Assembly (NCBI GenBank): GCA_965228735.1
Contig: OZ245838.1
Span: forward strand, 6,560,001 to 6,624,000
Reading direction: 5' to 3'
Origin: Planctomycetota bacterium
GTDB taxonomy: Bacteria; Planctomycetota; UBA1135; UBA2386
Length of the DNA: 64,000 nucleotides
Part shown: piece after piece, positions 24,895 through 54,959 of the stretch
Numbering within the stretch: the stretch's first letter is position 1
How the letters are laid out: each line of letters begins with the position of its first letter
The notes under the pieces: model-generated
What the model was told of the DNA's origin: nothing
Seen by the model: the letters and a program-made list of their open reading frames with translations, nothing else
The model's database searches: none
Translations under genes and position numbers: made by a program

Positions 24895-24896
24895 AG

Positions 24897-36009: not shown

Positions 36010-39000
36010 CTATTCGGCGTGCAGGGCCCGGAGCAGCTGCCCCCGGGTCGCCAGGGCGCTCGCCAGGACGACCCAGAACGCGCCGCTGAGCGCGATCAGC
36101 GCCACGAAGCCGAGGAGCGGCCCGATGGCGACCGGGTCGGGCGACCGGACGACCGGGACGATCGCGAGGCCTGCCGCCACGAGCCCGGTGAGGAGGCCGA
36201 GGCCCAGCAGCAGCCCGTGTTCGCTCACGACGAGTCGGCGCACGTCCCGGCTCGAGAAGCCGACGGCCTGCAGGGTCGCGAGCTCGGCGCGGCGTTCGAG
36301 CGTGTTGCGGAGCACGACCACGCCGAGCCCGACCGTGCCGAGCAGCAGGCCGAGGCCGCCGAGCAGCTGGAAGATCGCGAGGTAGGTGTTCTGCACGGCC
36401 TGGAACGCGGCGAGCCGGTCGGCGGACTTCGTGAGCTCGAGTCCGAGGTCCGCCAGCGCGCGCGACAGCGACGTCGCGACCGCGTCCGCGCGTTGGGCAT
36501 CGGCGTCGACGAGGAACATGCGGAACCCCGTCGCCGACGGGAATCGTTCCCGCAGGTGCCGATCGGCGATGACGAGATTGCCCTGCAGGATCGAATCGCT
36601 CACCGTCGCGACGATGCGCACGTCGAACTCGTTCCCGGCCTCGTCCCGGTAGCGCAGCGCATCGCCGACGGCCTTGTGCAGGCTCCACGTCACGCTCGCG
36701 GCGTCGCCGATCGCCGGCACGACGTCGGGTCCGAGGTCCCGGTCGAGCAGTCGCCACGGGTTGTCGTCGCCCGCGTCACCCGTGACCGCGAACCGGAAGG
36801 CCTCGCGTTGCGCCAGCTGTTCCGGCTCGACGCCGACGAGCCGCGGGCTTTGCGGCGTGCTGAGGTTGAGGCAGCTGCCGTCGTCGCCGTCCTTGACGCG
36901 CAGCGGCACGATGCGTGCGCCCTGCAGATCGTCGTCGTCGAGCGCGTAGGCGTCGCGTCCGGCGGTGGTCGCGAGATCGCGCAGCACCGGCAGCGACGAG
37001 CGGCCGAACAGCGCGAACCCGCCCGTGCCCGACGCGCGCACGCTCGGATCGGTCGGCGGCTCGAGCCGGTTGCTCTGGACGGCGACGACGAGGAACGTGC
37101 CGCTCGCGAGCAGCGCGATCGTCGTGAGGCTCCGACCCGTGCGGCGCGAGCTGTTGCGCACGCCGAGCGCGGTGATCGTCGGCAGGCCCGCCGTGCGTTT
37201 CGCGGCGTGGCGCAGCAGCAGGTGGCGCGATGCGAAGATGCCGGCGATGAGCACGAGCGCACCCGCGCCGAAGAACGTGCCGGCGGTCGCGGCCGAGCTC
37301 GACCCTGCGGTCATCACGAGCGTGATCGCGCCGGCGAGTGCGATGACGGCGAGCCCGAGGCTCAGTCCACGCGGGCCCCGGGCACCGGGTCGTGCCGTGG
37401 GCGCCAGCGTACCGTCGCCCTGCAGCAGTTCGACGGCCGGCCGCCGGAACGCGCGGCGCAGCGTGAGCAGGATCGCGAGCAGCGCCGCGACGACCGCACC
37501 GATCGCGCCGCCCACGATCGAGCCCGGGACGAGGTGGGCCGTGAGCGTCGTCTGGCCGACCGCGTCCTGCCACAGCGACCCGAGGCCGGCGAGCACGGCG
37601 TGGGCGTAGCCGATGCCGAGCAGGGCGCCGAGCGTCGCGCCGACGCCCGCGAGCAGCAGTGCTTCGCGCACGAACAGGCCGCGCACCCTGCCCTCCGTGA
37701 AGCCGACCCCGAGCAGCAGGCCGACTTCGCGCCGGCGCTGTTCGACCCCGAACACGAACAGCAGCGCCGTGAGCATGAGCCCGGCGATGACGAGGAAGAA
37801 GCTCAGTCCGAGGAAGAGGCCGCCGAAGTCGGTCGCCGGCGAGCCTGCGGCGAGTGCCGGGCCGCGCAGGTCGCGGAAGAACAGCCCGAGTGCTTCGGGA
37901 TCGAGCTGCTGCGCGAGCTCGGTGCGCACGCGCGCGGCGGCCGGCGCGCTGAGCCGGATCGCCGTGAGGTTGCCGAACCGGTTGCCGAAGAGCCGCTGCC
38001 CGGCGGCGAGCCCGAGGAACGCCTTGGGCGTGCCGCGGTGTTCTTCCCAGTAGGCCTGGTCCTCGCCATCGAGCCGGTCGAGTTCGACCGGGATGCCCGG
38101 CTCCCAATCGCCGCAGCTGCGCGCTTCGGCGAGGCCCGGGAACGCCGGCATCAGAGCCGGGTCGAGCGCGGCATTCGCGAGCTCGACGATCGCGCTGACG
38201 CGCATCGTGTGGGTGCGTTCGTCGAGCTGCAGCTGCTCGTCCATGACGTAGTAGCTCAGCACGAGCTCGGCGCCGGGCTCGGCGCCGATGTCCTTGGCGA
38301 GCCAGTCGTGGATCACCAGCTCGTCGCCCTCCGGCGCGAGACTCGCGGTCGCGGCGAGCGGCGCTGCGGGAGCGGTCGCCGGGTCGAGCGGCCCGAGTGC
38401 GGTCACCGTCGAGTACGGCGTCACGCGTTCGCCGGCCGCGATCGAGTTCACGAAGTAGGTGAGGATCGCCAGGCCGTCGGGCGCGATGGCGCGAACGGTG
38501 TCGCCGATCGCGGGATCGAGGAAGACGCGGCCGCTCGTCAGCGCGTGGATCTCGGGGTTCGTCGCGCTGCCGTCGAGGTCGGCCGGGATCGGGCCGAGCT
38601 CGAGCTCCGCGTCCGCGAGGGTCCAGTGGGTGCGCAACGCCCGGTCCGCGGCCGCAGGCGTCGCATCGATCGCGAGCAGGTTGGCGCGGTCCTCGAGTTC
38701 GAGCTCGGCGTTGAGCCACGCCCGGTCGAGGAACACGTTGAACGGCGGCACCTGGCTCGCCCGCAGACCGAAGCGGCCGAACTCGTCGTCCTGCAGCACG
38801 CGGTCGACGGTGACGCGCAGCGCGAACGCGACGTCGTCGACGGTCGCCATCGTGGCCTCGCGCGGCATGAGGCTCGGACGCTCGACGCGCACGACGAACT
38901 CGTCGCCGGCGTCGATCTGCAGCTGGCGCGCGAGTCGCACGTTCACGAACGCGCGGCCAGGTGGGATCGCGGTGACCGCCGATGCCCGGGCTGGCGCCAT

Positions 39001-39375
39001 CGCGAAGAAGCGTGTGTCCACGCCGTAGACGTCGACGAGACCGGTGCGCAGTTCGGTCGGCCCCTGTTCGTTGCCCTTGCGGCGGCTGGTGGCCACGCCC
39101 GGCAGCTGCACGATCGGCGCGCACGTGCTGCCCTCGATCGCGGCTGCGATCCGATCCGCGAGCGCGACCGTGACGAACCGGTCGCCCGCGGTCAACGCCG
39201 CGTCGAACCCGCCGATCCGTTGCAGTGCCTGCTCGCGCAGGCTGAGCCGTACGGAGTCGCCGACGGTGAGCGCGCCGACGAGCACGGTCGCGGCACACAG
39301 CACGCCGAGGACGACCCCGACTTGGGTGCGCCAGTAGTGCCGCAGGCTGGCCTTCGTCAGGCGCCAGGCATTCAT
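36010..39375 (-). CDS. ABC transporter permease, duplicated MacB/FtsX-like
   Basis: N-terminal TM, two large periplasmic domains; EQRRREVGLLLGVGF and ERRAELATLQAVGF FtsX signatures. Confidence 0.9.
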   Translation of the reverse strand: MNAWRLTKASLRHYWRTQVGVVLGVLCAATVLVGALTVGDSVRLSLREQALQRIGGFDAALTAGDRFVTVALADRIAAAIEGSTCAPIVQLPGVATSRRKGNEQGPTELRTGLVDVYGVDTRFFAMAPARASAVTAIPPGRAFVNVRLARQLQIDAGDEFVVRVERPSLMPREATMATVDDVAFALRVTVDRVLQDDEFGRFGLRASQVPPFNVFLDRAWLNAELELEDRANLLAIDATPAAADRALRTHWTLADAELELGPIPADLDGSATNPEIHALTSGRVFLDPAIGDTVRAIAPDGLAILTYFVNSIAAGERVTPYSTVTALGPLDPATAPAAPLAATASLAPEGDELVIHDWLAKDIGAEPGAELVLSYYVMDEQLQLDERTHTMRVSAIVELANAALDPALMPAFPGLAEARSCGDWEPGIPVELDRLDGEDQAYWEEHRGTPKAFLGLAAGQRLFGNRFGNLTAIRLSAPAAARVRTELAQQLDPEALGLFFRDLRGPALAAGSPATDFGGLFLGLSFFLVIAGLMLTALLFVFGVEQRRREVGLLLGVGFTEGRVRGLFVREALLLAGVGATLGALLGIGYAHAVLAGLGSLWQDAVGQTTLTAHLVPGSIVGGAIGAVVAALLAILLTLRRAFRRPAVELLQGDGTLAPTARPGARGPRGLSLGLAVIALAGAITLVMTAGSSSAATAGTFFGAGALVLIAGIFASRHLLLRHAAKRTAGLPTITALGVRNSSRRTGRSLTTIALLASGTFLVVAVQSNRLEPPTDPSVRASGTGGFALFGRSSLPVLRDLATTAGRDAYALDDDDLQGARIVPLRVKDGDDGSCLNLSTPQSPRLVGVEPEQLAQREAFRFAVTGDAGDDNPWRLLDRDLGPDVVPAIGDAASVTWSLHKAVGDALRYRDEAGNEFDVRIVATVSDSILQGNLVIADRHLRERFPSATGFRMFLVDADAQRADAVATSLSRALADLGLELTKSADRLAAFQAVQNTYLAIFQLLGGLGLLLGTVGLGVVVLRNTLERRAELATLQAVGFSSRDVRRLVVSEHGLLLGLGLLTGLVAAGLAIVPVVRSPDPVAIGPLLGFVALIALSGAFWVVLASALATRGQLLRALHAE

Positions 39376-40082
39376 CGCGGTTGGCCCGCGGGTGCTGCGG
39401 CCCCGGCGAGGACGCCGTCACGCAGTTCGATCGCGCGACTCATCCGGTCGGCGAGGCGGCGCGAGTGGGTGACGACGAAGAGCGCCACGTCGTGTTCGCT
39501 GTTGAGCTCGACGAGTAGCTCGCCGAGTCGGTCGGCGCCGCGCTCGTCGAGCGACCCCGTCGGTTCGTCCGCGAGCAGCAGGCGCGGCCGGTTGACGAGC
39601 GCGCGCACGACGGCGACGCGTTGGCGTTCGCCGCCCGAGAGCTCGGCCGGGCGGTGATCGAGTCGGTCGCCGAGTCCGACGTCGTTCAGCAGCGCCCGGG
39701 CGCGGTCGGGCGCGGCCTTGCGTACCGCGGTATCGGACAGCGCGAGCGTCGGCACGAGCACGTTCTCGAGCGCCGTGCACTGCGGCAGGAGGTGGTGCGA
39801 TTGGAACACGAAGCCGATCTCCCGGCTGCGCAGCGCGGCGAGTTCCTTCGCCGACAGTTCGCCGAGATCGCGGCCGTCGAACCGCACCGTGCCGGTGCTC
39901 GGCGGCAGCAGCCCGCCGATGAGGTTGAGCAGCGTGCTCTTGCCGCAGCCGGACGGCCCGAGCACGGCCACCGACTCGCGCGCCGCGATCGTGAGGTCGA
40001 CCCCGCGCAGCACCTCGGTCGTGGGGCCGAACGTCCGCGTCGCGCGCTCGACCTCGACGAGTGGCCGGTCGGCGGTCGTCAT
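39372..40082 (-). CDS. ABC ATP-binding protein, LolD/MacB type
   Basis: GPSGCGKST, IGFVFQ, LSGGERQRVAV, LLADEPTGSLD, VTH. Confidence 0.95.
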   Translation of the reverse strand: MTTADRPLVEVERATRTFGPTTEVLRGVDLTIAARESVAVLGPSGCGKSTLLNLIGGLLPPSTGTVRFDGRDLGELSAKELAALRSREIGFVFQSHHLLPQCTALENVLVPTLALSDTAVRKAAPDRARALLNDVGLGDRLDHRPAELSGGERQRVAVVRALVNRPRLLLADEPTGSLDERGADRLGELLVELNSEHDVALFVVTHSRRLADRMSRAIELRDGVLAGAAAPAGQPR

Positions 40083-40612
40083 TTGGGCGCCTGTTGCGAC
40101 GGGGCCTGTTGCGATGGGGGCGTGCCGGGTTTCGCGCCGGCCGGTGCCGGCTTGTAGAGCGTCACGAGCAGGCCGCCGGTCGCGGCGAGTGCGATGCCGA
40201 GCAGGAACCGCCAGTCGAGACTCCCGAAGCCGCCCGTCGGCGGGTGGACGGCGATCGCGACGAACGCGTTCACCATCGGCGCACCCGCGAAGATGATGGA
40301 CATCACCGCGGCGGGGTGACCCTTCGCCCCGAACGCGAGCAGCACGCCGAACGCGCCGATCGCGCCCATGATGCCCGCGACGAGCGACCAGGTGACGGCC
40401 TTGGGCGGCATCGACCAGGACGCGCCGGCGAACCACAGCATCGCGGCCGGGGCGAGCACGGCGATGAGGAAGTAGGCGATGCCGACCCAGAAGAACGCCT
40501 TGTAGCGCCCGTTCTGCGGGTCGCCCATGGCGACCTGGCCGGTGTGCAGGAGCACGCCGTAGAGCCCCCAGCTGACGACGGTGAGGAGGGCGAAGAGGAT
40601 CCAGGTCTGCAT
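40079..40612 (-). CDS. Small multi-pass membrane protein (DMT/EamA-like)
   Basis: About five hydrophobic helices, FALLTVVSWGLYG N-terminus; overlaps the ABC ATPase start. Confidence 0.7.
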   Translation of the reverse strand: MQTWILFALLTVVSWGLYGVLLHTGQVAMGDPQNGRYKAFFWVGIAYFLIAVLAPAAMLWFAGASWSMPPKAVTWSLVAGIMGAIGAFGVLLAFGAKGHPAAVMSIIFAGAPMVNAFVAIAVHPPTGGFGSLDWRFLLGIALAATGGLLVTLYKPAPAGAKPGTPPSQQAPSQQAPK

Positions 40613-40653: not shown

Positions 40654-41958
40654 TCAGCGGGGGGCCGCGGCGACGGTCTCGCAGATCGCAGCGACCTCGC
40701 GCGCCATGCGCTCGGCGGTGAAGTGGGTGCGAACGGATTGCCGGCCACGTTCGCCGAGGGACCGGGCGAGCACGTCATCCGAGAGCACTGTCCGGAGGCC
40801 GTTCGCGAGCGCTGCCGCATCGCCGGGTTCGCACAAGAGTCCGCCGCCCGTCGCCTCGAGGATCTCGGGGAACGCGGCGTGGCGCGGCTGCACGACGGGC
40901 ACGCCCGCCGCCATCGCCTCGAGCACGTAGAGCCCGAACGACTCGCCGTAGAGCGCTGGCACCGACATCACCGAGAGGGTGCGCAGGAACTCGAGCTTGG
41001 TCGGACGATCGATGTTCGGCAGGAAGTCGACGCGGCCCGCGGCGCCGTTGGCCGCGATGCGGTTCTCGAGCTCAACGGTGAACGCTTCGTCCTCGCGCAG
41101 GCGCACGCCGGCGACCCGCAGCCGCACGTCGGCGAGCGCGGGATCGGCGGTCAGTTCGAGGAACGCGTCGACGAGCACGTCGAGGCCCTTGTCGCGGCAC
41201 ATGCGCGCGAGGTAGCCGATCGTACGCGGGCGGCGAGCAGCCGCAGGCTCCGCCGGTTCCATGATGTCCGTGCTGTCGATGCCGTTGTGCACGACGTGCA
41301 GGCGGTCGGTGGCGGGGCCGAGGCGCTCGCGCATCACGTCGCGATACGAGTGACTCACCGCGATCAGCGCGTCGACCTCGGCAGCCCGCTCGCGCAGAGT
41401 CTGCCACGCGGCGTCGCGGTCGCGCGGCGGCAGCATGTCGAGGAACGGCTGTTCACCCTGCAGCGTCACGACGACCGGGACGCCGAGTGCCTGGCGCAAC
41501 GGCCGCGCGACGCCGACGAGCATCGCGTTGCTGACGATGACGACGTCGGGCGTTTCGCCGGTGCTGATCCAGCGCACGAGCCGGTCGATCTCCGTCTTCT
41601 GGCGGCCCTCTTCGCCGCGCAGCAGGGACACCGTCATGGCGCCGAGGTCAGGGGCGTCCGTCATGCTGCCGCGGTTCGCGGCCCAACGCAGCAGCCCCGG
41701 CCGATCGAGCCAGTTGCTGACGAAGCGCGGCAGCAGTCGGGCGAGCCCGCTCTTCTGCTGCAGGTAGACGTTGATGCCGCCCATGCGGATCGCCGGCTCG
41801 ATCCCCGTGCCGTCGGTCTCGATGACGAGCGGCAGGTAGAGCGGCGCGACCCGCACGTCGTGGCCGAGGCCGCGCAGCGCGTCGCCGAGCGCGATGTCAC
41901 GCAGGCAGCTGCCGCAGAAGAAGTTGCCGGTGCCCGGGGTCAGCAGCAGGACGCGCAT
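40654..41958 (-). CDS. Glycosyltransferase family 4
   Basis: VVHNGID, IGYLARM..DKG, ESFGLYVLEAMAAGVPVV (EX7E). Confidence 0.92.
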   Translation of the reverse strand: MRVLLLTPGTGNFFCGSCLRDIALGDALRGLGHDVRVAPLYLPLVIETDGTGIEPAIRMGGINVYLQQKSGLARLLPRFVSNWLDRPGLLRWAANRGSMTDAPDLGAMTVSLLRGEEGRQKTEIDRLVRWISTGETPDVVIVSNAMLVGVARPLRQALGVPVVVTLQGEQPFLDMLPPRDRDAAWQTLRERAAEVDALIAVSHSYRDVMRERLGPATDRLHVVHNGIDSTDIMEPAEPAAARRPRTIGYLARMCRDKGLDVLVDAFLELTADPALADVRLRVAGVRLREDEAFTVELENRIAANGAAGRVDFLPNIDRPTKLEFLRTLSVMSVPALYGESFGLYVLEAMAAGVPVVQPRHAAFPEILEATGGGLLCEPGDAAALANGLRTVLSDDVLARSLGERGRQSVRTHFTAERMAREVAAICETVAAAPR

Positions 41959-41961: not shown

Positions 41962-44043
41962 CTACTCGTCGCCTCCGGCCGGCGCGCGGAAGGCCCAGAC
42001 GCGCTTGTCGCCCGCACCGACGACGATCATACCGTCGATCACGGCGGGCGAGCTGAAGATCGGGCGACCGATGTCGTAGTTCCAGACCTCGTCGCCGGTC
42101 GCGAGTCGCACGAGGTAGAGCCGGCCGTCGCCCGACCCGAAGACGACCTTGTCGCCGCAGATCACGGGCGAGCCGTCGACCTTGCGGCGAGTCTTGAACG
42201 TCCAGAGCTGCTTGCCGGTCGCGCGTTCGATGCAGTGCAGCTGCTTGTCGCGGCTGCCGATCACGATGTGATCCTCGGCGATCGCGGGCGACGAGACGAA
42301 GCCCTCGCGGCGGTTGCTGTAGGTCCACTCCGTCTCGCCCGACTCGAGATGAACGCGCAGGAACTCGTTGCCGTAGTGCCCGAACCAGGCGCGGTCGTTC
42401 GCGAGCGCGACGGAGCCCGCGACCTGGCAACCCTGCCCGAGGTCGATCCGGGTGATCGGTTTGCCAGTCGCGGCCGCGACGAGGTGCAGGCCGGCGTCGC
42501 AGCCGCCGAATACGACCTCGCCGCCGGCGATCGCCGGCGCGCCGTGCACCTGGTCCGTCGTCTCGTAGACCCACTGCTGCTCTCCCGCGGCGTCGACGCA
42601 GTAGACGCGCGCGTCGTAGCTCGGGACGACGATGCGCAGCGCGCCGCCTTTGAGCCGGAAGTAGTTCGCACCGCCGAGGATCTGGTCCTCGGTCTGGAAC
42701 TTCCAGCGCAGTTCGCCGGACGCGGCGTCGAGCGCGTAGAGGTGGCTGTCGGACGAGCCGATGTAGACGACGCCGTCGACGACGAGCGCCGGCGCCTCGA
42801 CCATGTCGCCCGTCGGGAATGCCCAGCGCCGCTGACCGCTCCGCAGGTCGATCGCGTAGACCGAGTTGTCGGTCGAGCCGACGTAGACGAAGCCGCCCGC
42901 GATCACGGGCGACGACATCACCTCACCGCCGGTCTCGAACTTCCACGCGACCTCGGGCGTGTCCGAGAGCGCGCCGCGGGCGACGCCGTGCAGCGACGGG
43001 TTGCCGCGGTAGTGTGGCCACTCGCCGAGCGGTGGGGGCACGGCCGGGGTGTCCGCGACCTCTGGCTCGCTCGCGGCCTCGGCTTTGGCCGCTTCGTCGA
43101 GCAGCGGCGAACGGAACTCGTATTTCGCGAACAGGCGTTCCCGCAGCGCGTCGATCTCCGCGCGGGTCGCCTTGCCGCCGGACAGCTCCTTCTGCAGCGC
43201 CGGGCGCACGCGATCGAGCTCGGTGACCTGCTTGTCGAGCAGCTGGATCAGGTGGTAGCCCGTGCTCGAACGAACGGGTGCGGAGACCTCGCCGACGGCG
43301 AGCCGGCGCACGGCGTCCGCGAACGATTGCCCGAACCGCACGAAGTTGTAGCGCGGCAGCACGCCGGCCTCCGAAGCCGTCGCCGCGTTGCGCAGCAGAC
43401 GCCGCGTCGTGCGATCGTCCGACTCGCGCAGCAGCGCGTCGAACGACTCGCCGTTCTGCAGTCGGGCGTGCAGCCGCTTCGCGCGCGCCTCGGCGTCCTG
43501 CCGGCGGTCGTTCACGAGCACGTGCCGCACCTTCACCCGCACGCCGCCCTCGCCGTACCGATGTTCGAACAGCGCCTGCACGCGCGCGGGGTCGACGCTG
43601 CGGGCGGCGGCGACGAGCGCGTCGATGCGCAGGTCGCGCAGGGCCTCGGTCGCGAACCGGGCGCGCAGACGAACGTCGGCGACCTCGCGGTCGGAGGCGA
43701 GGCGCCGGCGCGAACCCATGGCGCGCGCGAGGGTGGGGGCGCTGCGCGCGATGCGGCGCTTCTCGCACTCCGCAGCGAGCAGGATGTCGAACGCGAGCTC
43801 ACGGATCTGCCGCGGCCCGGCGCGGCCCGGCGCGAGGTCGCGCTGGTAGCGGTCGAACGTAGCGCGCGTGATCGGGCCGGCCGTCGTCGTGGCGACGATC
43901 TCCGAGCCTTCCGCCGTTCCGCCCGTGGCGGGGTCGGTCGAGCAGAAGAACCCGCGGGACGGGTCCAGGTGGACCTCCTGGGCCAAGCCTTGGGCGAACG
44001 ACGCGAGCAGCGTCAGTGCGAACAGCCGTAACGTGCGGGTCAT
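41962..44043 (-). CDS. Exported fusion of parvulin (PpiC-type) PPIase and PQQ/BamB-like beta-propeller
   Basis: Signal peptide; VRHVLV, GESF, GEVSAPVRSSTGYHLI; then WPHYRGN and multiple SSP..G.VYVGS.D blades. Confidence 0.85.
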   Translation of the reverse strand: MTRTLRLFALTLLASFAQGLAQEVHLDPSRGFFCSTDPATGGTAEGSEIVATTTAGPITRATFDRYQRDLAPGRAGPRQIRELAFDILLAAECEKRRIARSAPTLARAMGSRRRLASDREVADVRLRARFATEALRDLRIDALVAAARSVDPARVQALFEHRYGEGGVRVKVRHVLVNDRRQDAEARAKRLHARLQNGESFDALLRESDDRTTRRLLRNAATASEAGVLPRYNFVRFGQSFADAVRRLAVGEVSAPVRSSTGYHLIQLLDKQVTELDRVRPALQKELSGGKATRAEIDALRERLFAKYEFRSPLLDEAAKAEAASEPEVADTPAVPPPLGEWPHYRGNPSLHGVARGALSDTPEVAWKFETGGEVMSSPVIAGGFVYVGSTDNSVYAIDLRSGQRRWAFPTGDMVEAPALVVDGVVYIGSSDSHLYALDAASGELRWKFQTEDQILGGANYFRLKGGALRIVVPSYDARVYCVDAAGEQQWVYETTDQVHGAPAIAGGEVVFGGCDAGLHLVAAATGKPITRIDLGQGCQVAGSVALANDRAWFGHYGNEFLRVHLESGETEWTYSNRREGFVSSPAIAEDHIVIGSRDKQLHCIERATGKQLWTFKTRRKVDGSPVICGDKVVFGSGDGRLYLVRLATGDEVWNYDIGRPIFSSPAVIDGMIVVGAGDKRVWAFRAPAGGDE

Positions 44044-45197
44044 CGCAGCGCAGCCTCCAGGATCGAGCGCAGCTCGCCCGAGGTGACGGTCCGCGGGTTG
44101 AACTGCGCCGTCCACTGCGTCGCGGCGGCGGCCGCGAGGTCGTCGAGCGCCGACTCCGGCACGGCGGGGAGCGTGCGTTCCGCAAGCTCCACGAGGGTCA
44201 CGAGCCGCTTGACGAAACGAGCGTAGGCCTCGCCGTCGTCGACGTGCGTGTCAGCGAGCGCGGCGCCGCGAGCGAGGTGCGCGTACATTGCCTGCGCACC
44301 CGGCTCTTCCGCGTTGAACCGGACGACGAACGGCAGCAGCGCGCCGACCGCGACGCCGTGAACCACGCCGAACCTCTGCGTCAGTGGGTTCGCCAGCGAG
44401 TGCGCCGCGCCCAGCATGCTGTTCTCGATCGCGATGCCGGCCCAGGCCGACGCGTGCAGCATCCCGGCGCGCGCCACGAGGTCGTTCGGGTCCTCCAGAA
44501 CGCGCGGGAAGTGCTCACTGACGAGCCGGAACGCCTCGGTCGAGCACGTCGCCGACATCGGCGTGCGGGCGCGCGTCACGGCGGTCTCGACCGCGTGCGC
44601 GAGCGTGTCGAGGCCGGTGCACGCCGTGACGAAGCGCGGCATCGTCACCGTGAGCGTCGGGTCGAGCACCGCGATGCGGGGCGCGGCCTGCGGATCGCCG
44701 CACGCCATCTTGCCGTGATCGTCGCTGTTGGTGATCAGGGCGAACGACTGCACCTCGCTGCCCGTGCCGGCCGTCGTCGGCACGGCGATGAGCGGCAGCA
44801 GCTGCCCCTTCGCGGTGCCCTTGCCGCGGTAGTCGCGCATGCGCCCGCCGCCGGCTGCAACGAACAGCGCGCCCTTGGCCACATCGATCGCGCTGCCGCC
44901 ACCGACCGCGATCACGAGATCCGTCGCGGGGTCGAGCGCCTGCCGGCAGCGCTCGACGTCGTCCTCGGTCGGGTTCTCCGCGGCATCATCGAAGCGGTCG
45001 ACGGTGAGACCGGCCTGCTCGAGGCAGCGCTGCGCGCGGTCCGGATGCCCCGCGGCCGCAACGCCCGGGTCGGTCACGAGCAGCACGCGCGTGGCCGACA
45101 GCTCGCGCGCGAGGTCACCGATCCCGTCGACCGCGTTCTCGCCCAGCACGAGCCGGGTAGGGCACTGGAACTGCGGGTGCGATCCCGGCGCGGTCAC
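44040..45197 (-). CDS. Iron-containing alcohol dehydrogenase
   Basis: PTRLVLG, GGGSAIDVAK, VPTTAGTGSE, D.LAHAVE, GAAHSLA, HGVA; GTG start at 45197. Confidence 0.93.
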   Translation of the reverse strand: MTAPGSHPQFQCPTRLVLGENAVDGIGDLARELSATRVLLVTDPGVAAAGHPDRAQRCLEQAGLTVDRFDDAAENPTEDDVERCRQALDPATDLVIAVGGGSAIDVAKGALFVAAGGGRMRDYRGKGTAKGQLLPLIAVPTTAGTGSEVQSFALITNSDDHGKMACGDPQAAPRIAVLDPTLTVTMPRFVTACTGLDTLAHAVETAVTRARTPMSATCSTEAFRLVSEHFPRVLEDPNDLVARAGMLHASAWAGIAIENSMLGAAHSLANPLTQRFGVVHGVAVGALLPFVVRFNAEEPGAQAMYAHLARGAALADTHVDDGEAYARFVKRLVTLVELAERTLPAVPESALDDLAAAAATQWTAQFNPRTVTSGELRSILEAALR

Positions 45198-45205
45198 CGC
45201 TGCTC

Positions 45206-46636
45206 CTACCAGCCCTGGGCGCGCTGGATCGCGCGGCGCTCGTAGAGGAACTCGAACAGGTTGCCCTCGTGCGGCTGGTCCCACTCGACGTGCGACGTCG
45301 GCACGGGCCCGACGTTGAGGCGGTCGACGTGGTGCGACCGCGACAGCTCCGCGAGCAGGTCCTCGTCCTTGGTGATCGCGGTCACGACGAGGCTCGGGCC
45401 GAGGTCCTCGACGAGCCGGTCCGCGGGTACCTCGACGACGCTCGCGAATGGGCAGAGGAACTCGGTGCGCGCGAGCGGGTGCTCGACGTCGTCGCAGCGC
45501 ACGACGGTCGGCAGCAGGTACTGGCGGCCGCTGTGTTGGACGGCGCGCGGGCCGTCGCGGTGCGCGGCGCTCACGTCGCGGGCGCCGCTCCGGATGCCGT
45601 CCTCGATGCGCGCGTCGATGAACTCGGCCATCTTCGGGTTGGCTAACGCGGACAGCGACGCATCGTCGGCGTCGGGTGCGGTGGGGGCGCGGTTCTTCAG
45701 TTCGGCGGCCAGCGCGTCGGCGATCGCGTCGCCGTGCTTGCTGACGAAGATCGAGGACGCGTTGACGCAGCTGCGACCGCCGTTGTCCGCGACGGACGCG
45801 GCGAGCACGGGCAGGTACTCGCGCCAGTCGTCGATCAGGTCCGGACCGATGACGACCTTGCTGCGGCCAGGGCCGTGGATCTCGATGCGCGGGTCGTGGG
45901 CCCACGCCTTGGTCACGGCCTCGTCGCCGAACAGCTGCGTCCGACCGCAGCGTTCGAGGATGACGCCCGAGCCCTCGTGGTCGGTCGGGTAATAGCTGAA
46001 CGCTTCGCGTGGGCAGCCCGCCGCGATGAACGCCTGCATGATGCGCAGCGGCGTCCACGGTTCTTCGCGGCCCGGCTTGAGCACGACCGGAATGCCGAGC
46101 GCGATCGCGGGCATCCAGATCGAGTTCACGCCCGGCGAATTGCTCGGCAGGATGACGCCGAGCGCATCGGTGGTCGGCGCGTAGTAGACCGGCACGTCGC
46201 CGTGGCTGCCGAAGCCGGTCTCGACGACGGCCGGGTCCATGCCGCGCGTTAGGCCGCGCAGGATGCCCGCCATGCCGTCGAAGACCGTGAAGATCTTCTG
46301 CATGTTGCGGCGCACGAGCACGTGCGGCAGTCCGCTCGTGCGGCTCAACGTCGTGACATGGTCCTCGGCCGACTGCGTCGCGCCTTCACCGTTGAGCGGC
46401 AGCTCGGCGGTCATGAACAGCTCGCCGGCCTTCTTGCAGATCTCGAGCAGCTGCGCGCTCGACAGCGCCCGCAGCGTCTTCGCCGCGCGATCGGCCTTCT
46501 TCAGGTCGCGCTTGATCATGCCGGCGTTGGCCTGACTGATCACGGCCACGACGTCGTCGCCGCTCAGCAGCTCGTTCTGCTCGAGGCTGGTGTACTCCTT
46601 GCCGGCGCGCAGAACGGGGATGTGCGGAGCGCTCAA
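45206..46636 (-). CDS. ALDH-superfamily acyl reductase (EhpG/LuxC-like)
   Basis: ILPSN, VVLKP, HGPGRSKV in place of ELGGK, catalytic NGGRSC, EFLCP; TTG start overlapping upstream stop. Confidence 0.8.
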   Translation of the reverse strand: MSAPHIPVLRAGKEYTSLEQNELLSGDDVVAVISQANAGMIKRDLKKADRAAKTLRALSSAQLLEICKKAGELFMTAELPLNGEGATQSAEDHVTTLSRTSGLPHVLVRRNMQKIFTVFDGMAGILRGLTRGMDPAVVETGFGSHGDVPVYYAPTTDALGVILPSNSPGVNSIWMPAIALGIPVVLKPGREEPWTPLRIMQAFIAAGCPREAFSYYPTDHEGSGVILERCGRTQLFGDEAVTKAWAHDPRIEIHGPGRSKVVIGPDLIDDWREYLPVLAASVADNGGRSCVNASSIFVSKHGDAIADALAAELKNRAPTAPDADDASLSALANPKMAEFIDARIEDGIRSGARDVSAAHRDGPRAVQHSGRQYLLPTVVRCDDVEHPLARTEFLCPFASVVEVPADRLVEDLGPSLVVTAITKDEDLLAELSRSHHVDRLNVGPVPTSHVEWDQPHEGNLFEFLYERRAIQRAQGW

Positions 46637-47673
46637 TAGACCCCCTCGACGATCTTCTCCTTCTCCGCCTCGAACGGCCGCACCTCGCCGACGCCGTCCC
46701 ACGCGTACTGCTCGCACGGCTTGCGGCGAAGCGCCTCGTCGCGCTCGAGGAAGCGCGGCATGAAGAACTCCTTCGTCAGCGTCGTGAGCTCGACGCGGCC
46801 CCAGTCGTCGTAGTCGACGACGTTCTCCGTCTGCTCGGGGTCGACGACGCGCAGCACGGCGCGCGGCTGCGGCGCGTAGTAGGTGATCGAGTAGCCGTCC
46901 GCTGCGAAGTCGGGCTTGTGGGCCGCGAGGCCCATGAGCGTGTTGCCGTAGGTCGGGACGAACTCGACCTCGCCCTCGAGGACCTCCTCGCAGATGAACC
47001 GCGTGTTCTGCGGCGTCATCGTCGTGCCGCCGCAGAAGACGCCCTTGATGCCGGCCTCGGGGATCGACGTGCGTTCGCCGAGCTCCTCGAGGAGCTTGGG
47101 CGTCGTGAACAGCGCGGCCACGTCGCGGTGCTGGATGATCGACATCGCCTGGTCGACGACGTGCGCCATGTAGGCCTTGGCCTGGTCGAACTCCTTGTTC
47201 CTGATCAGCTTCTTCACCCAGCGCGGGTCGAGGTCGACGAAGTAGCACGATGAGCCGCGGAAGTTGGCGAGGTGCTCGATCGCGAGCCGGAGGCGCCGCG
47301 GTCCCGTCGGGCCGACCATGAGCCACGCGCCGCCCGGCGGAAACGCCGCGTCGCTCAGCGTCGCGGAGAACTGCTCGTAGTCCGTCTTGTAGTCCTCCCA
47401 GTTGATGCGCTGCTTCGGCATCCCGGTCGTGCCGCCGGTCTCGAACACGGTGAACGGCCGGCCCTCGTACGCCTTCGGGATGAAGCGGGCGTGCGGCTCG
47501 GTGCGCAGCAGCTCGCCGTCGAAGTGGGGGAAGCGCGTGACGTCGGCGAAGCCCGTCACCTCCTCGGCCGGGTTCCAGCCACTGGCCTTGGCCCAGTCGA
47601 GCCAGTGCGGCGTGCCGGTCTCGGGCGAGAAGTGCCAGCGCACGATCTCGCAGAAGTGTTGGTCGAGGTTCAT
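46633..47673 (-). CDS. EhpF-like compact adenylate-forming enzyme (PaaK/LuxE-related)
   Basis: RWHFS.ETG.P.WL, ETGGTTGMPK P-loop, PTGP, DLDPRWVK, GGT, YG.T, PR..ERD, C-terminal EGVY resemble Pantoea EhpF as I recall it. Confidence 0.82.
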   Translation of the reverse strand: MNLDQHFCEIVRWHFSPETGTPHWLDWAKASGWNPAEEVTGFADVTRFPHFDGELLRTEPHARFIPKAYEGRPFTVFETGGTTGMPKQRINWEDYKTDYEQFSATLSDAAFPPGGAWLMVGPTGPRRLRLAIEHLANFRGSSCYFVDLDPRWVKKLIRNKEFDQAKAYMAHVVDQAMSIIQHRDVAALFTTPKLLEELGERTSIPEAGIKGVFCGGTTMTPQNTRFICEEVLEGEVEFVPTYGNTLMGLAAHKPDFAADGYSITYYAPQPRAVLRVVDPEQTENVVDYDDWGRVELTTLTKEFFMPRFLERDEALRRKPCEQYAWDGVGEVRPFEAEKEKIVEGVY

Positions 47674-47675
47674 CG

Positions 47676-47839
47676 CTAGTGCCGTGTACCGGAAGTCACC
47701 TTGTAGATCGCGAGGTCATTCGCGTTCCTGGCAAGGAGCGATCCGCAGGAGTATTGGTGGATACGCCGAGGACGCGCGACGCAGCCAGGGGCGTGAAGGG
47801 CCCGCGAACTACAAGGTGACTTCCGGTACATGGCACTAG
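47676..47839. mobile_element. MITE-like element with ~31-bp terminal inverted repeats and CTAG ends
   Basis: CTAGTGCCgTGTACCGGAAGTCACCTTGTAG versus CTACAAGGTGACTTCCGGTACAtGGCACTAG (one mismatch); no ORF; fills the intergenic space. Confidence 0.75.
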
Positions 47840-49377
47840 GGACTGAGGTCGGGACGGTCGAAGAAGCGGTCGATGGTCTTGTCCGATGGGGGTCGGGTCA
47901 CGAGGCTGACGACCACGAGGGTGACCGTGGATGCCGCGATCATGACCGTGACGGGCATCATCCCACCGATCAGATAGTCCTCGCCGGCGCGTTCACCAGC
48001 CAGAGTTGGCGCCAGCAGGCCGTCGTAGAACAGGACGGCCCAGGTGACCCCGGCGACGAGGACCGCGGCGATCGCGCCCGCGGCCGTGGCCCGGCGCCAG
48101 TAGACGGCCGCGACGACGAGCGGGAACAGCGCCGCGAAGCCGCTGAAGCACCAGACCGCGAGGTCGAAGACGTTCGGCGGCGGGAACAGCGACAGTAGGT
48201 ACGTGACCGCGACGATCGCGAGGATGAAGAGGCGACCGAGGCGGACCTTCTGGGCCTCGTCGAGCCGGGCGCCCATCCGGTGGGCGACGATGTCGTGGGT
48301 GAAGATCGAGCCGAGGCAGACGAATTGCGAGTCGAGCGACGACATGATCGCGGCGAGGATGCCGGCGAGCAGGAGCCCTTCGACGAACGGGTTGCTCAGC
48401 TGGATGCCGACCATCTTGGCCAGGATCGCGTTGCTGTTGCCGCCCGGCGCCTCGATGCCGGCGCCCGCCGCCCAGATGCCGATGAGCACGCACGGCGCCC
48501 AGACGATCATGATGAACAGCGGGTGGGCGACGACCGTCATGCGGAACGTCTTCGCGCTGCGGGCGGTCAGCCAGTGCTGGAACAGGTGCGGGAACATGCC
48601 GACCGACAGCGGCACGAACATGTAGGACAGGAACTGCAGGTGGCCGATCTCGCCCTCGCGTGCGAGCAGCTCGGGCCGGTTGTCCAGCACGTTCTGGCTC
48701 GCGGCCTCGACGCCGCCGAGCGAGTCGCTGATCAGGTAGAACGCGAGCAGGCCGACGAGCATGAACACGATCGTCTGGACGGCGTTGGCGAGCGCCGCGG
48801 CGCGCACGCCGCCCGTGAGGATGTAGGCGAGCACGACGCCGCAGACCACGAGACCCGTGATCCACGGCTGCACACCGGCGATGCCCTTCACGACCGCGCC
48901 CGCGCCGACGATGCCGATCAGCAGATACGGGATCACGAGCCCGACGAGCACCGGGAACAGCAGGTAGCCGAGCGCGTTCGACTCGAACCGGCCGCGGAAG
49001 AACTGGATCTGCGTGACGTAGTTGTGCTTCTTCCCGATCGCCCACAGCTTGATGCCGACGAGGAAGAACACGAGCGAGTGGATGATGCCCGACGCCGACG
49101 CCATCAGACCGTAGACGCCGATGCCGGCGTCGTAGGCCTTGCCGGTCGAACCGACGAGCGCGAACGCGGTCATCGTCGTGCCGAACACGCTCATGAGCAG
49201 CAGGAACGGCCCGATCGAGCGGCCCGCGACGAAGTACTCGCCGGCCGAGCCGCGCGAGCGACGGCTGTTGACCATGCTGAAGAGCAACAGCAGCGCGAGG
49301 TAGCCGGCGACGACCCAGAGCGGGGTCGTGCTCTTCTCGGCGGGGGCCTGCAGCGTGGCGAGCAGGTCGGCGATCAT
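47836..49377 (-). CDS. Sodium:solute symporter (SSS) family protein
   Basis: YFVAGRSIG, GGVRA, PHL.Q, AAIMSSLDSQ, YWRRAT..GA; about 13 TMs. Confidence 0.93.
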   Translation of the reverse strand: MIADLLATLQAPAEKSTTPLWVVAGYLALLLLFSMVNSRRSRGSAGEYFVAGRSIGPFLLLMSVFGTTMTAFALVGSTGKAYDAGIGVYGLMASASGIIHSLVFFLVGIKLWAIGKKHNYVTQIQFFRGRFESNALGYLLFPVLVGLVIPYLLIGIVGAGAVVKGIAGVQPWITGLVVCGVVLAYILTGGVRAAALANAVQTIVFMLVGLLAFYLISDSLGGVEAASQNVLDNRPELLAREGEIGHLQFLSYMFVPLSVGMFPHLFQHWLTARSAKTFRMTVVAHPLFIMIVWAPCVLIGIWAAGAGIEAPGGNSNAILAKMVGIQLSNPFVEGLLLAGILAAIMSSLDSQFVCLGSIFTHDIVAHRMGARLDEAQKVRLGRLFILAIVAVTYLLSLFPPPNVFDLAVWCFSGFAALFPLVVAAVYWRRATAAGAIAAVLVAGVTWAVLFYDGLLAPTLAGERAGEDYLIGGMMPVTVMIAASTVTLVVVSLVTRPPSDKTIDRFFDRPDLSP

Positions 49378-49658
49378 TCGTTACCCCCGCTGCCGCTGCT
49401 GTTGCCGCTGTCGTCACTCTCAGAAGCCCACTCCTCGATGTGGGAGGGCCACGCGAACTTCACGACGAGCAGCCACGCCGTCGCGGCGCCGACCGAGATC
49501 AGCACCTGGAACAGCAGGCCGATCGGCACGAACCCGAACACGAGCGTGCGGTCGTCCCAGTACCAGAAGTCGTAGTGCAGGACCGCGAGCACCACGACGA
49601 GCAACCAGGCGAGGATCCCGGCACCCGAGATCCTCCGGCCGGAGTGCGCATCGCTCAT
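49374..49658 (-). CDS. Small two-TM SSS partner protein (DUF3311-like)
   Basis: LHYDFWYWDD.TLVFGFVP.GL; directly upstream of and overlapping the SSS gene. Confidence 0.75.
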   Translation of the reverse strand: MSDAHSGRRISGAGILAWLLVVVLAVLHYDFWYWDDRTLVFGFVPIGLLFQVLISVGAATAWLLVVKFAWPSHIEEWASESDDSGNSSGSGGNE

Positions 49659-51220
49659 TTGCCCTGCTTGTCGCCGTCGGTGGTGGCGATCGCGTAGAGG
49701 TGCGTGTGCGTTGCCACGTAGAGCGTGCCGTTCGCCGCGATCGGCGAGCTGAAGATCGGGGTGCCGAAGTCGATCTCCTTGACCTGCTTCTTGTCGAGCG
49801 TCTTCTTCGCGGGGGCGGAGACCAGGAAACCGTCCTCGATGCCGACGTAGACGCGGCCGTCGGCGACCAGCGTCGAACCCCAGATGTGCGCGCTCGTGTC
49901 GTAGCGCCAGTGCAGCTTGCCGGTCGCGACGTCGAAGCAGTAGAGGAAGCCGGAGTAGTCAGCGATGAACAACATGTCCTCCCAGATCGACAGCGTCGTC
50001 ATGGACCGGTTGATGTCGTTGTAGCTCCAGACCTCCTTGCCCTCGTGATCGACGCACACGAGGTTGCCCACGCCCTCGCCGTGCTCGGGGTCCTGACCGA
50101 TCGCCGTGTAGACGCGGCCGTCGTGCACGATCGGGGTCGCGAGCACTTCGCTCGGGCCCTTCGCCGTCGCGTACTTGCGCGGCTTGCCGTCCTCGTCGAA
50201 GCGGTAGCGCTTCGGGTTGCAGTCGTACTCCCAGACCTTCTTCAGGACCTGGAAGCCCTCCTCGTCCGGCACGGGCTTCGGGTCGAACGCGTAGAGCACG
50301 CCGTCCGGACCGCCGAAGATCGCGAGCTTGACCGGGCCCTTCTCGAGCCAGGCCGGGGACGACCAGTTGCTGTGGAAGATGTGCTCACCGAGGCCCGAGG
50401 CCTCTTCGCCGATGAGCTCGCCCGTGTTCTTGTCGACGACGATCATCGACGGGGCGTTCGGCGCGGGCGTCTCGACGTGGCCGTAGTCGACGCCGTTGCT
50501 CGTCGAAGTCCAGACCTGGTCACCGACGATCATCACGGAGCAGCTCGTGATGTTGTGCGGGAACACGCCGCACTCGTCGATCATGTTGAGCTTCCAGATG
50601 ATGTCGGCGTCGGTCTTGCTCACCGCCATCGGCGGCTTGCCGTTGTCGGGGAAGTACTTGCCCTCGTCCTGGAAGGGGCCGTCGTTGCCGTTCTCCATCC
50701 CGTTCACGTCGAGGCACATGACCTCGCAGCGGTTGGTCACGAGGTAGACGCGGTCGCCCTCGATCGCCGGCGAGCTGCAGATGCCGAGGAACTCCCAGTC
50801 GCTGACCTTGCCGGTGCCGAGCTTGGGCACGTTGAGCTGCCAGATGAGCTCGCCCGTCTTCTCGTCGAGGCAGTAGACGCACGACCGGTCGCCCGCGAAG
50901 CGCGGGTCGCGCGGCGTGTCGTTGTTGGTGCCGACGTAGACGCGGCCGTTGGCGACGGTCGGGTTGCCGTAGCTCTGTGAGCCGAGCTTGGCGACCCACT
51001 TGACGTTCTTCGTCGTCGCCATGTCGATCTCCTCGCTGTCACCCTTGTAGGTGCCCGGGTTGAAGTCGACGGGCAGGCCCTTCACACCGGGCGCGACCAT
51101 GTTGCGCGCGGCGGTGCGGCCCCACATGGGCCAGTCTTGGGCGGCGGCCATGGGCGCGGTCAGCGCGCCCAGCGCACCGATGCCAACGAGGGCGAACAGT
51201 CGATTCTTCAGATCAGTCAT
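49655..51220 (-). CDS. Exported PQQ/BamB-like beta-propeller protein
   Basis: Signal peptide, QDWPMWG, NVKWVAKLG, CLDEKTGELIW blades, SSPIAANG. Confidence 0.85.
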   Translation of the reverse strand: MTDLKNRLFALVGIGALGALTAPMAAAQDWPMWGRTAARNMVAPGVKGLPVDFNPGTYKGDSEEIDMATTKNVKWVAKLGSQSYGNPTVANGRVYVGTNNDTPRDPRFAGDRSCVYCLDEKTGELIWQLNVPKLGTGKVSDWEFLGICSSPAIEGDRVYLVTNRCEVMCLDVNGMENGNDGPFQDEGKYFPDNGKPPMAVSKTDADIIWKLNMIDECGVFPHNITSCSVMIVGDQVWTSTSNGVDYGHVETPAPNAPSMIVVDKNTGELIGEEASGLGEHIFHSNWSSPAWLEKGPVKLAIFGGPDGVLYAFDPKPVPDEEGFQVLKKVWEYDCNPKRYRFDEDGKPRKYATAKGPSEVLATPIVHDGRVYTAIGQDPEHGEGVGNLVCVDHEGKEVWSYNDINRSMTTLSIWEDMLFIADYSGFLYCFDVATGKLHWRYDTSAHIWGSTLVADGRVYVGIEDGFLVSAPAKKTLDKKQVKEIDFGTPIFSSPIAANGTLYVATHTHLYAIATTDGDKQGK

Positions 51221-53504: not shown

Positions 53505-53644
53505 GGAACGGGGCGTGGGGGCAGATGGCACGAGGTTTCGCAACAGTTGACCCACAAGTTACTTGCCCACGACGTATGGGCCGGTCGAGCGCTCGGGGTC
53601 GGGTGCGTGGCGAGGGCGCTCGGGAGGCTGTTACGGCCGTTCGC

Positions 53645-54928
53645 TCAGTTCGGTGAGGAGATGCACCACAGGTGCTCGTGGGTGCGCAGGAACAGCTCGC
53701 CGCCGGCGGCGGCCGGCGTCGAGTTGGTGTCCTCGCCGAGCTCGTTGCGGGCGAGGACGACGAGTTCTTCGCGGTCGGGCGCGAACACCGTCGTCGTGCC
53801 GTTCTGGCCCATGAGGTACAGCCGGTTGCCGGTGGTCAGGACGGAACCCCACGTCTTGCCGCGCGTGACGCGCGAGCGCCAGTGCTGCGTGCCGTCCTTC
53901 GGATCGAGGCACCGCACGAAGCCGTCCATCTCCGGCACGAAGATCGCGCCGTTCTCGAACACGGCCGATGCGCAGTTCGTGATCGACTCGGGATGCAGCC
54001 ACTCGCGATGGGTCGCCGTCACGTCGCCGGTGCCGTCGAGCCGCACGCCGAGCATGGGGCCGACGTAGCCGCCGAAGATCGCGCACAGCTCGCCGGCGAT
54101 GACCGGCGAGCTGTAGGTCAGGTCGCCGCGCGAACTCGAGACCCCGCCGCACTCCCAGGCGATGGAGCCGTCCTTCGCGTCGTAGGCCACGAGCCGCGTC
54201 GGCTGGCCGCAGAGCACGAGGTCGCGATTGCCGACGCGCTGCACGAGCGGCGTGTGCCACGAACCTGCGAGTCGCTTCTTCTCGACCTGCTCGGGCGTCA
54301 GGTGCGGCGGCTCGTCGGTGCGCCACACGGTTGCGCCGGTCTCGCGATCGAAGGCGGCCACGAACGACGTCTCGCCCGGACCGGTGTGGAGCAGCACATG
54401 ATCCCCGTGCAGCACGGGCGATGTGCCGTGCCCCCATTGGTGGCGGAACTCACCGAGATCGCGGCGCCAGAGCTCCTTGCCGTCGAGGTCGTAGCACAGC
54501 AGCCCCGCGCTCGCATGCCACACGATCACCCGGTCGCCGTCGCACGCGGGCGTCGTGCTGCAGTGCGGGTTGGTCTGGTGTGTCGGCATCGCGCGGTCGA
54601 GCGTGACCGTGCGGCGCCAGAGTTCCTTGCCCGAGCTCTGATCGAAGCACAAGAGCGACCGCCCGCGCCCGTCCTCGTCCTCGGCCATCGTGAGGAACAC
54701 GCGACCTTCGGCCACGATCGGGCTGCCGTTGCCTGCGCGGGCGAGGGGTGTCTTCCACTTGACGTTCTTCGTCGGGCTCCACTCGAGCGGCAGGTTCTGC
54801 GCCGGCACGCGGCCGTCGCCGGTCGGGCCGCGCCATTGCGGCCAATCCTGCGCGTTGGAGCGGGCGACGAGCAGCAGGAGGCCCGCGGTGGTGCAGGCGA
54901 GCGTGAACGCGGGGTGATGGCGCGGCAT
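53645..54928 (-). CDS. Exported PQQ/BamB-like beta-propeller protein
   Basis: Signal peptide, QDWPQWRGP, KNVKWK, AFDRETGATVW blades. Confidence 0.85.
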   Translation of the reverse strand: MPRHHPAFTLACTTAGLLLLVARSNAQDWPQWRGPTGDGRVPAQNLPLEWSPTKNVKWKTPLARAGNGSPIVAEGRVFLTMAEDEDGRGRSLLCFDQSSGKELWRRTVTLDRAMPTHQTNPHCSTTPACDGDRVIVWHASAGLLCYDLDGKELWRRDLGEFRHQWGHGTSPVLHGDHVLLHTGPGETSFVAAFDRETGATVWRTDEPPHLTPEQVEKKRLAGSWHTPLVQRVGNRDLVLCGQPTRLVAYDAKDGSIAWECGGVSSSRGDLTYSSPVIAGELCAIFGGYVGPMLGVRLDGTGDVTATHREWLHPESITNCASAVFENGAIFVPEMDGFVRCLDPKDGTQHWRSRVTRGKTWGSVLTTGNRLYLMGQNGTTTVFAPDREELVVLARNELGEDTNSTPAAAGGELFLRTHEHLWCISSPN

Positions 54929-54959
54929 CCCGTCATCGGACGGGGAATGCCGCGTGCCG

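Follow-up and report, generated by a model that had tools for sequence, protein, structure and literature searches.

To date, enzyme pairs of the EhpF/EhpG type, in which an adenylating enzyme works with an aldehyde dehydrogenase (ALDH)-fold partner, have been known only from antibiotic pathways. The structures PDB 3HGU, 3HGV and 3L2K belong to the EhpF/EhpG system of the D-alanylgriseoluteic acid (phenazine) operon of Pantoea agglomerans, and EhpF and EhpG are proposed to act reductively. GriC and GriD, in the grixazone synthesis of Streptomyces griseus (Suzuki 2007), are reported to convert 3-amino-4-hydroxybenzoate (3,4-AHBA) to an acyl-AMP and then to the aldehyde (PMC10179220); in the lomofungin cluster, an EsmB1/EhpF-like gene, an aldehyde dehydrogenase gene and an alcohol dehydrogenase gene lie side by side as lomo14-lomo16 (PMC4549113). 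In this report, we examined a stretch of 64,000 nucleotides of a Planctomycetota genome (hereafter the window), in which a first-pass annotation had described a module of three genes: an EhpF-like gene, an ALDH-fold gene and a gene for an iron-containing alcohol dehydrogenase (Fe-ADH, or ADH), without phenazine core genes. We find that this trio does not stand alone as a module but lies midway in a longer pathway, of about 12 genes, that is inherited together in Planctomycetota. We lean slightly towards a route in which the first two enzymes, referred to below as F and G, would turn an aromatic acid, perhaps a 4-hydroxybenzoate-type one, into its aldehyde, which the ADH would convert to a benzyl alcohol.

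The EhpF-like and EhpG-like proteins

The three genes lie on the minus strand, as follows (aa, amino acids):

46633-47673, minus strand: F, adenylating enzyme resembling EhpF, 346 aa; has the N-terminal but not the C-terminal ANL domain
45206-46636, minus strand: G, EhpG-like ALDH-fold reductase, 476 aa; TTG start; Pfam Aldedh
44040-45197, minus strand: Fe-ADH, 385 aa; Pfam Fe-ADH, E 3e-44

The gene order first described for 44040-47673 is thus confirmed: the TTG start of G overlaps the stop of F by 4 nt, and the GTG start of the Fe-ADH gene, preceded by AGGAG, is 8 nt past the stop of G. Contigs from two other public runs (X2 and X4) read 43900-47734 without difference, and a third run (X6) shows a single 1-nt gap there, at a place of low depth. 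F and G are each present in single copy in this genome, which consists of one contig of 7.19 Mb and is 93% complete.

Homology between F and EhpF (PDB 3L2K/3HGU) covers residues 9-346 of F, to its last residue (E 5.5e-44, 30% identity). The predicted structure of F, with a predicted local distance difference test (pLDDT) score of 90.9, has EhpF as its top structural match (template modelling (TM) score 0.84, E 1.5e-29), so that the similarity, which the first-pass annotation had suggested checking in just this way, is not low. The next matches of the model are aryl-acid ligases (PaaK, ClxA, AjiA1 and NatL2), which exceed F by 50-90 residues, the PaaK-type matches being 396-436 aa long. F is without the C-terminal ANL domain that serves thioester formation, and so is not a PaaK-type aryl-coenzyme A (CoA) ligase; EhpF itself is reported to be without this domain. 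F carries the P-loop ETGGTTG (78-84), YGN (242-244), ERD (310-312) and a C-terminal EGVY, the first three being invariant or nearly invariant across 55 F sequences.

G shares 26% identity (E 1e-40) with EhpG, which is encoded by the gene that follows ehpF on a Pantoea plasmid, and 31% with a Streptomyces partner protein. It keeps the catalytic Cys (Cys290), as had been noted, and in an alignment to KauB it has H254-GPGRSK where hydrolytic ALDHs have E-x-GGK. Within the Planctomycete G clade, P164-S-N166, K187, H254, C290 and E392 are invariant; His254 and Cys290 stand in 37 of 37 aligned sequences, and the general-base Glu of the hydrolytic enzymes is absent, its place being taken by His in all 37. 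This substitution rules out that G is an ordinary hydrolytic ALDH, and the loss of Glu fits an enzyme that leaves its thioacyl intermediate unhydrolysed, which is established ALDH chemistry. The first-pass annotation had pointed to HGPGRSK in place of ELGGK as peculiar. The motif is there, but GPGRSK is a family signature (QGPGRSK in Pantoea EhpG, RGPGRSK in two Streptomyces partners) and cannot count as a novelty; in two further partners, from a haloarchaeon and Burkholderia, no pattern of this type was matched. The Fe-ADH carries GGGS, D197, H201, H266 and H280. Since an ANL domain with end-to-end homology to EhpF is here coupled to an ALDH-fold partner with the Cys and GPGxSK, we consider it likely that F and G form a two-protein carboxylate reductase of the EhpF/EhpG type.

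Two other affiliations were tried and rejected. The first-pass annotation had drawn an analogy to the Lux system, in which the acyl group passes from acyl-AMP to a Cys near the synthetase C-terminus and then to the aldehyde. The likeness to LuxE/LuxC is one of logic only: their family profiles gave no match at E 0.01 (Pfam) or 0.001 (NCBIfam), and no Cys is found among the invariant or 90% columns of the alignment of 55 F sequences. The second is ordinary tailoring of phenazines, either made by phz genes at another site in the genome or supplied as an imported phenazine acid. It might be favoured by the fact that the best solved match of F is EhpF, by one 31% match to the PhzF query, and by a genome that is 93% complete. 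However, with the Pantoea proteins as queries no match to PhzA/B, PhzD or PhzG was found in this genome, which bears out the absence of phenazine core genes first reported, and the PhzE query gave partial TrpE/PabB-like matches only. The PhzA/B family is absent from three Planctomycete genomes searched (this one, G000, together with G121 and G035), while both control plasmids (W01 and W02) matched, and phz genes are not found among the recurring neighbours. We therefore regard phenazine tailoring as very improbable.

Co-inheritance across Planctomycetota

To follow these genes, 301 Planctomycetota genomes were surveyed. F matches occur in 104 of them, in two score tiers separated by a gap between 1e-53 and 1e-76; the cut-off for close-tier F, 1e-70, was set after this gap was seen. 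Close F and G mark an identical set of 71 genomes, with no discordance, and these span 23 families, with a patchy distribution in several. An orthologue of the radical S-adenosylmethionine (SAM) enzyme encoded in the window is present in 70 of the 71 and in none of the 230 others. Five more partners (the ADH, a family 4 glycosyltransferase (GT4), a conserved propeller of the pyrroloquinoline quinone (PQQ)-like type, a flavin-dependent halogenase-like enzyme and a symporter) were tested on the 71 genomes and on 9 near kin without F/G. The ADH, GT4 and conserved propeller are each found in 71/71 and 0/9, one ADH being a contig-end fragment, and five further F/G-less genomes hold only ADH paralogues of about 34% identity; the view that the ADH is dedicated to the pair thus stands. 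The halogenase-like enzyme is likewise present in all 71, and the symporter in 58 of the 71 and in none of the 9. A thioesterase and a membrane protein were found in 22 and 21, respectively, of 22 F+G genomes tested, and in none of seven F/G-less genomes.

The set is kept even where it is dispersed. All 24 genomes of family f8 retain F, G, ADH, GT4 and radical SAM genes, often far apart on the chromosome, and among 37 close-clade loci chosen for diversity, F and G fell together within the stretch read in 29 and all three genes in 24. The trio alone is less surprising than the first-pass annotation held. Four points count against reading this pattern as that of one pathway. Related genomes are not independent, so that the counts are patterns and not statistics; the negative controls for the ADH, GT4 and propeller are limited to 9 near kin; two of these 9 give a weaker match to the halogenase-like enzyme; and where the genes are linked, a single transfer would explain their co-occurrence.

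In the window, F, G and the Fe-ADH belong to a run of about 20 genes on one strand, mostly overlapping or nearly so. Their order is radical SAM, thioesterase, six PQQ-like propellers, DUF3311 with symporter, F, G, ADH, a peptidyl-prolyl isomerase (PPIase)-propeller fusion and GT4, followed by a small membrane protein, an ABC ATPase, a permease and two more propellers:

61940-63193, plus strand: flavin adenine dinucleotide (FAD) enzyme; motifs of the halogenase type are GxGxxG, F-x-x-K, WxWxIP and FxDP
59554-60864, minus strand: HemN-like radical SAM enzyme, CxxxCxxC present
59116-59547, minus strand: hot-dog thioesterase (4HBT/YbgC-like)
53645-59031, minus strand: four propeller genes of the W-x-x-(W/F)-RG type, which vary among relatives
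51213-53555, minus strand: conserved PQQ-like propeller, signal-peptide-like N-terminus by eye
49655-51220, minus strand: conserved PQQ-like propeller, the one found in 71/71 F+G genomes, signal-peptide-like N-terminus by eye
49377-49658 and 47836-49377, minus strand: DUF3311 small subunit and sodium:solute symporter
41962-44043, minus strand: PPIase domain of the parvulin type joined to a PQQ-like beta-propeller; the start overlaps the ADH stop
40654-41958, minus strand: GT4 glycosyltransferase, N-terminal CGSC motif
40079-40612, minus strand: membrane protein of 177 aa with about five hydrophobic segments, without Pfam or NCBIfam family, travelling with F/G
36010-40082, minus strand: ABC exporter, with ATPase (39372-40082) and double-FtsX permease of 1121 aa (36010-39375)
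34673-35947 (start estimated) and 32767-34563, minus strand: two PQQ-like propeller genes

The FAD enzyme, encoded on the strand opposite to that of the run, is divergent, sharing 37-38% identity with its counterpart in the clusters of relatives, and the halogenase-type motifs are kept in all four flavoproteins checked. Most relatives of the PPIase-propeller protein match its propeller part only.

Several side observations concern the DNA around these genes. The gap between symporter and F (47676-47839) is filled by a 160-bp element with inverted ends of about 31 bp, whose right end provides the symporter stop codon; with four genome copies of 89-100% identity, it looks like a miniature inverted-repeat element. 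A palindromic repeat (60865-60996), with related stretches at about 30 genome sites, lies upstream of the radical SAM gene, and a trypsin-like protein (60997-61941, Pfam E 1e-4) with no match in related loci is encoded between the radical SAM and flavin genes. The flanks are ordinary housekeeping DNA, their genes named by eye from translations: at 1-16000 an operon for ribosomal proteins that includes SecY- and RpoA-like genes, and DnaE-, prolyl-oligopeptidase- and DnaX-like genes at 20336-32736. No shift in G+C content separates cluster from flanks. A TonB-dependent receptor gene 14 kb past the window end (L081 14531-16580; G000:C1:6637533-6639578) encodes a protein 45% identical to one inside the cluster of two relatives.

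Other observations concern relatives. Atlas cluster labels point to Verrucomicrobiota as well. Two close-tier F copies with a single G occur in G252, G141, G167, G178, G188, G198 and G258; G252 has one of its copies next to the ADH and the second next to G. An accessory block near the cluster (L088 2626-9244, L042, L002, L064 and L065) encodes a GcvH-like protein, a CobW-like GTPase, a ferredoxin and a second radical SAM enzyme, with a DUF116-polyprenyl synthase fusion in L088; this genome has weak matches only to the block. At L050, L054, L055, L057 and L065, the cluster contains, or has close by, a gene for a full-length PaaK-like CoA ligase, whose best match in this genome is unlinked and of 37% identity, and a squalene-hopene-cyclase-like gene is found near the cluster in several loci. 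A second, distant F clade (about 32% identity) occurs without G in 33 of the 301 genomes, including 20 of 23 in family f30 (loci L071-L075 and L077-L080, for example L073 5291-14875). It adjoins an MMPL transporter and a male-sterility-type short-chain dehydrogenase/reductase (SDR), which may stand in for G as reductase; the f30 loci add an SCP2 protein, a U32 protein, a class III aminotransferase and multihaem cytochromes.

Source of the acid and use of the product

Evidence on the substrate comes from neighbouring genes. Many relatives carry a gene for a protein of 190 aa between the radical SAM and flavin genes, in many loci directly before the halogenase-like gene. No Pfam family was matched in this protein, whose model (pLDDT 88.9) has the chorismate-lyase/UTRA fold, with DUF98 protein AF1396 as best match (E 1e-7), GntR effector domains second, and UbiC at 3e-5. 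Its Atlas neighbours are named chorismate lyase or bear PF04345/PF01947, in fewer than a fifth of members. The lyase-fold protein is present in 54 of the 301 genomes, all within the 71 with F/G. It is found in 12 of the 13 F+G genomes that are without the symporter, and the symporter in 16 of the 17 without the lyase-fold protein, so that 70 of the 71 carry one or the other; this complementarity fits the making or importing of one acid. Further afield, eight plasmid loci with F homologues were opened for neighbours, and five adjoin aryl-acid synthesis genes: phenazine genes twice, 3-deoxy-D-arabino-heptulosonate 7-phosphate (DAHP) genes with PabB or with isochorismate synthase, and Mqn genes. 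Taken together, these neighbours suggest that the substrate of F/G is rather probably an aromatic acid; that it is of the 4-hydroxybenzoate type is a more tentative proposal, somewhat short of an even chance.

The route towards which we lean would run as follows, on the basis of homology, residues, gene order and co-inheritance. The acid would be supplied by the chorismate-lyase-fold protein in most genomes, or by import through the symporter, as here. F and ATP would yield an aryl-acyl-AMP, and no CoA ester, since F is without the C-terminal ANL domain; the acyl group would then pass to Cys290 of G. Because His254 stands where the hydrolytic enzymes have Glu, the thioester would escape hydrolysis, and NAD(P)H would free the aldehyde, which the Fe-ADH would reduce to the benzyl alcohol. 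From their families, the flavin and radical SAM enzymes might decorate the ring, the GT4 might glycosylate the product and the ABC exporter might export it. The first-pass annotation had proposed the sequence acid, aldehyde, alcohol on a (hetero)aromatic acid; the enzyme pair, the ADH and, indirectly, the aromatic substrate agree with it, the reaction itself being predicted.

Other findings tell against this route. No chorismate-lyase-like gene was found in this genome by Pfam PF04345 (for which an E. coli control matched), by profile or by tblastn, and 16 other F+G genomes are also without one. Because an uncharacterised DUF98 protein gives the best match and the GntR domains rank above UbiC, the fold is no proof of lyase activity. 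Three of the eight plasmid loci have no aryl-acid synthesis genes, one having a polyketide synthase, one a haloarchaeal symporter-F-G order and one being unannotated. Moreover, in a quick tree of 62 rows, with EhpF and the haloarchaeal row on long branches, close Planctomycete F forms one clade of 48 rows (SH-aLRT 99) that stands far from EhpF; EhpF itself and the Streptomyces, haloarchaeal and distant Planctomycete groups all fall outside it. The clade has the loop GP(T/S)GPRRLR in six of the six rows shown (GPTGPRRLR in this F), whereas outside it His follows GP in 8 of 10 rows and mostly H-(I/V)-(V/I)-G stands where F has RRLR. Its own clade and its RRLR loop suggest a different substrate for F.

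The same reduction might act on an acid other than a benzoate, either (hetero)aromatic or dicarboxylic, that the radical SAM and flavin enzymes build or remodel; the UTRA-fold protein would in that case bind a ligand and not be a lyase. The clade-specific arginines in the substrate-side loop, the greater constancy of the radical SAM enzyme (70/71) than of the lyase-fold protein (54/71) and the rank of the GntR domains above UbiC speak for this, but the Atlas names of the small protein's neighbours, for that minority of members, and the fact that in many loci it immediately precedes the halogenase-like gene speak for a lyase; we judge this alternative unlikely.

A glycolipid is a slightly less probable product. 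As in LuxD/E/C and heterocyst glycolipids, the thioesterase would free an acyl chain that F, G and the ADH would convert to a fatty alcohol, to be glycosylated by the GT4 and exported by the ABC exporter. Thioesterase, GT4 and exporter do travel with F/G, a squalene-hopene-cyclase-like gene is close to the cluster in some genomes, and the distant F clade adjoins MMPL, SCP2 and male-sterility-type reductase genes. However, besides the lack of LuxE/LuxC matches, neither acyl carrier protein nor ketosynthase is found among the recurring neighbours, the nearest folds after EhpF are aryl-acid ligases, and the chorismate-lyase-fold gene occurs only with F/G. A hopanoid link was also rejected, as the cyclase-like gene lies near the cluster in a few genomes and has no match in this one.

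The flow could also be the reverse: the ADH would oxidise an imported alcohol, G would acylate it and F would pass the acyl group on, for the use or detoxification of aromatics. An importer does lie directly upstream of F, acylating dehydrogenases are known among ALDH-fold enzymes that have no Glu at this position, and the haloarchaeal symporter-F-G locus is near amine oxidase and penicillin acylase genes. We find such an oxidative route quite unlikely, in that the known pairs of this type are reported or proposed to be reductive, F has no CoA-transfer domain, the partners are tailoring and export enzymes, and ring-cleavage or beta-oxidation genes do not recur, except for a thiolase pair in two loci. 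The haloarchaeal locus, on a Halalkalicoccus plasmid (L082 6511-10569), has symporter, F and G in the same order as here.

As to the use of the product, propellers were counted with a profile of their N-terminal part, on the best 13 matches per genome. All 71 F/G genomes have at least 3 propellers, versus 27 of the 230 others, and 55 have at least 10, versus 7 of the 230, so that the product of the pathway might serve propellers. Five of the seven propeller-rich genomes without F/G were examined. F, G, the radical SAM enzyme, the ADH orthologue, the thioesterase and the membrane protein are absent from all five, and a halogenase-like match from three. A relative of the conserved propeller is present in each (in one case weak and split), and the GT4 is kept in four; in three of them it forms a unit with a propeller and an ABC exporter. 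In three F/G-less genomes, an iron-sulfur protein gene directly precedes that of the GT4. The genes thus fall into two nested sets. The synthesis set (F, G, ADH, radical SAM, flavin enzyme, thioesterase, membrane protein and lyase-fold protein) is never found without the use-and-export set (GT4, propellers and ABC exporter), which occurs alone in a few genomes. This pattern resembles that of makers and scavengers of a cofactor, and it is the basis of a further reading, that the locus makes and delivers an aromatic glycosylated cofactor or ligand for the secreted PQQ-like beta-propellers of Planctomycetota; from gene distribution of this kind, we hold it to be a long shot. A search for PqqC in five genomes gave no match, and no control matched either.

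The first-pass annotation had also proposed that the alcohol is the acceptor of the GT4. The presence of the GT4 in 71/71 F+G genomes agrees with this, but its persistence in four of the five propeller-rich genomes without F, G, ADH and radical SAM enzyme weighs against dependence on the alcohol, unless the acceptor is imported or made otherwise; that the GT4 would act on this alcohol is thus possible but doubtful. The CGSC motif, within the first 20 residues of the GT4 and present also in relatives, is unusual for a GT4 and possibly metal-binding.

Comparison with known systems

A pair known from antibiotic pathways appears here in a pathway of about a quarter of the sampled Planctomycetota genomes. 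Its wide retention, including 24/24 genomes of family f8 with scattered genes, fits a physiological molecule rather than an occasional antibiotic. The interest of the locus rests more on this wide, conserved pathway and its link to propellers than on the three genes: if the product does serve the PQQ-like propellers, a large orphan family would gain a function, and the molecule might be a new cofactor. The split reductase could also serve as an aryl-acid biocatalyst. No description of this Planctomycete locus was found in the literature searched, most subscription journals being outside its reach.

Within Planctomycetes, the closest comparison is with baaA-baaB of Planctomycetales strain 10988, an adjacent lyase-like/halogenase-like pair proposed, with genetics untested, for 3,5-dibromo-p-anisic acid, a compound that a Planctomycete is reported to make; BaaB is compared there with Bmp5 (bioRxiv 10.1101/723874). 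The baa product keeps its carboxyl group, and section 2.3 of 10.1101/723874 mentions no F/G. Compared by description, the likeness lies in the pairing of a chorismate-lyase-like gene with a neighbouring flavin halogenase-like gene, which is seen in many relatives' loci; in this genome the lyase-fold gene was not found. Bmp5 is presumably of another flavoprotein class, so that BaaB may be a different gene.

EhpF/EhpG share with the present pair an end-to-end homologous, truncated ANL fold with C-terminal EGVY, and an adjacent ALDH-fold partner with Cys and GPGRSK. They differ in that phz genes are absent here, F forms a separate clade with the RRLR loop, His precedes GPG, the partner genes are others, and an Fe-ADH takes the place of the SDR. 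Streptomyces plasmids carry F homologues with the annotation 'arylcarboxylate reductase', a label that presumably stems from GriC. GriC/GriD, compared by description, are alike in pairing an AMP-binding protein with a reductase that takes a simple aryl acid to the aldehyde, with no phenazine; there the aldehyde ends the reduction, and 3,4-AHBA synthesis genes do not recur here. The three-step logic is not new: the lomofungin cluster (lomo14-lomo16) and a Streptomyces plasmid locus (L084) hold the same trio of EhpF-like, aldehyde dehydrogenase and alcohol dehydrogenase genes, in a phenazine or isochorismate context, with a zinc dehydrogenase in L084 and without the Planctomycete partner genes. 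The enzyme pair is thus of a known kind and the F+G+ADH trio is shared with Streptomyces clusters; what is new to description is the pathway in which Planctomycetota keep it.

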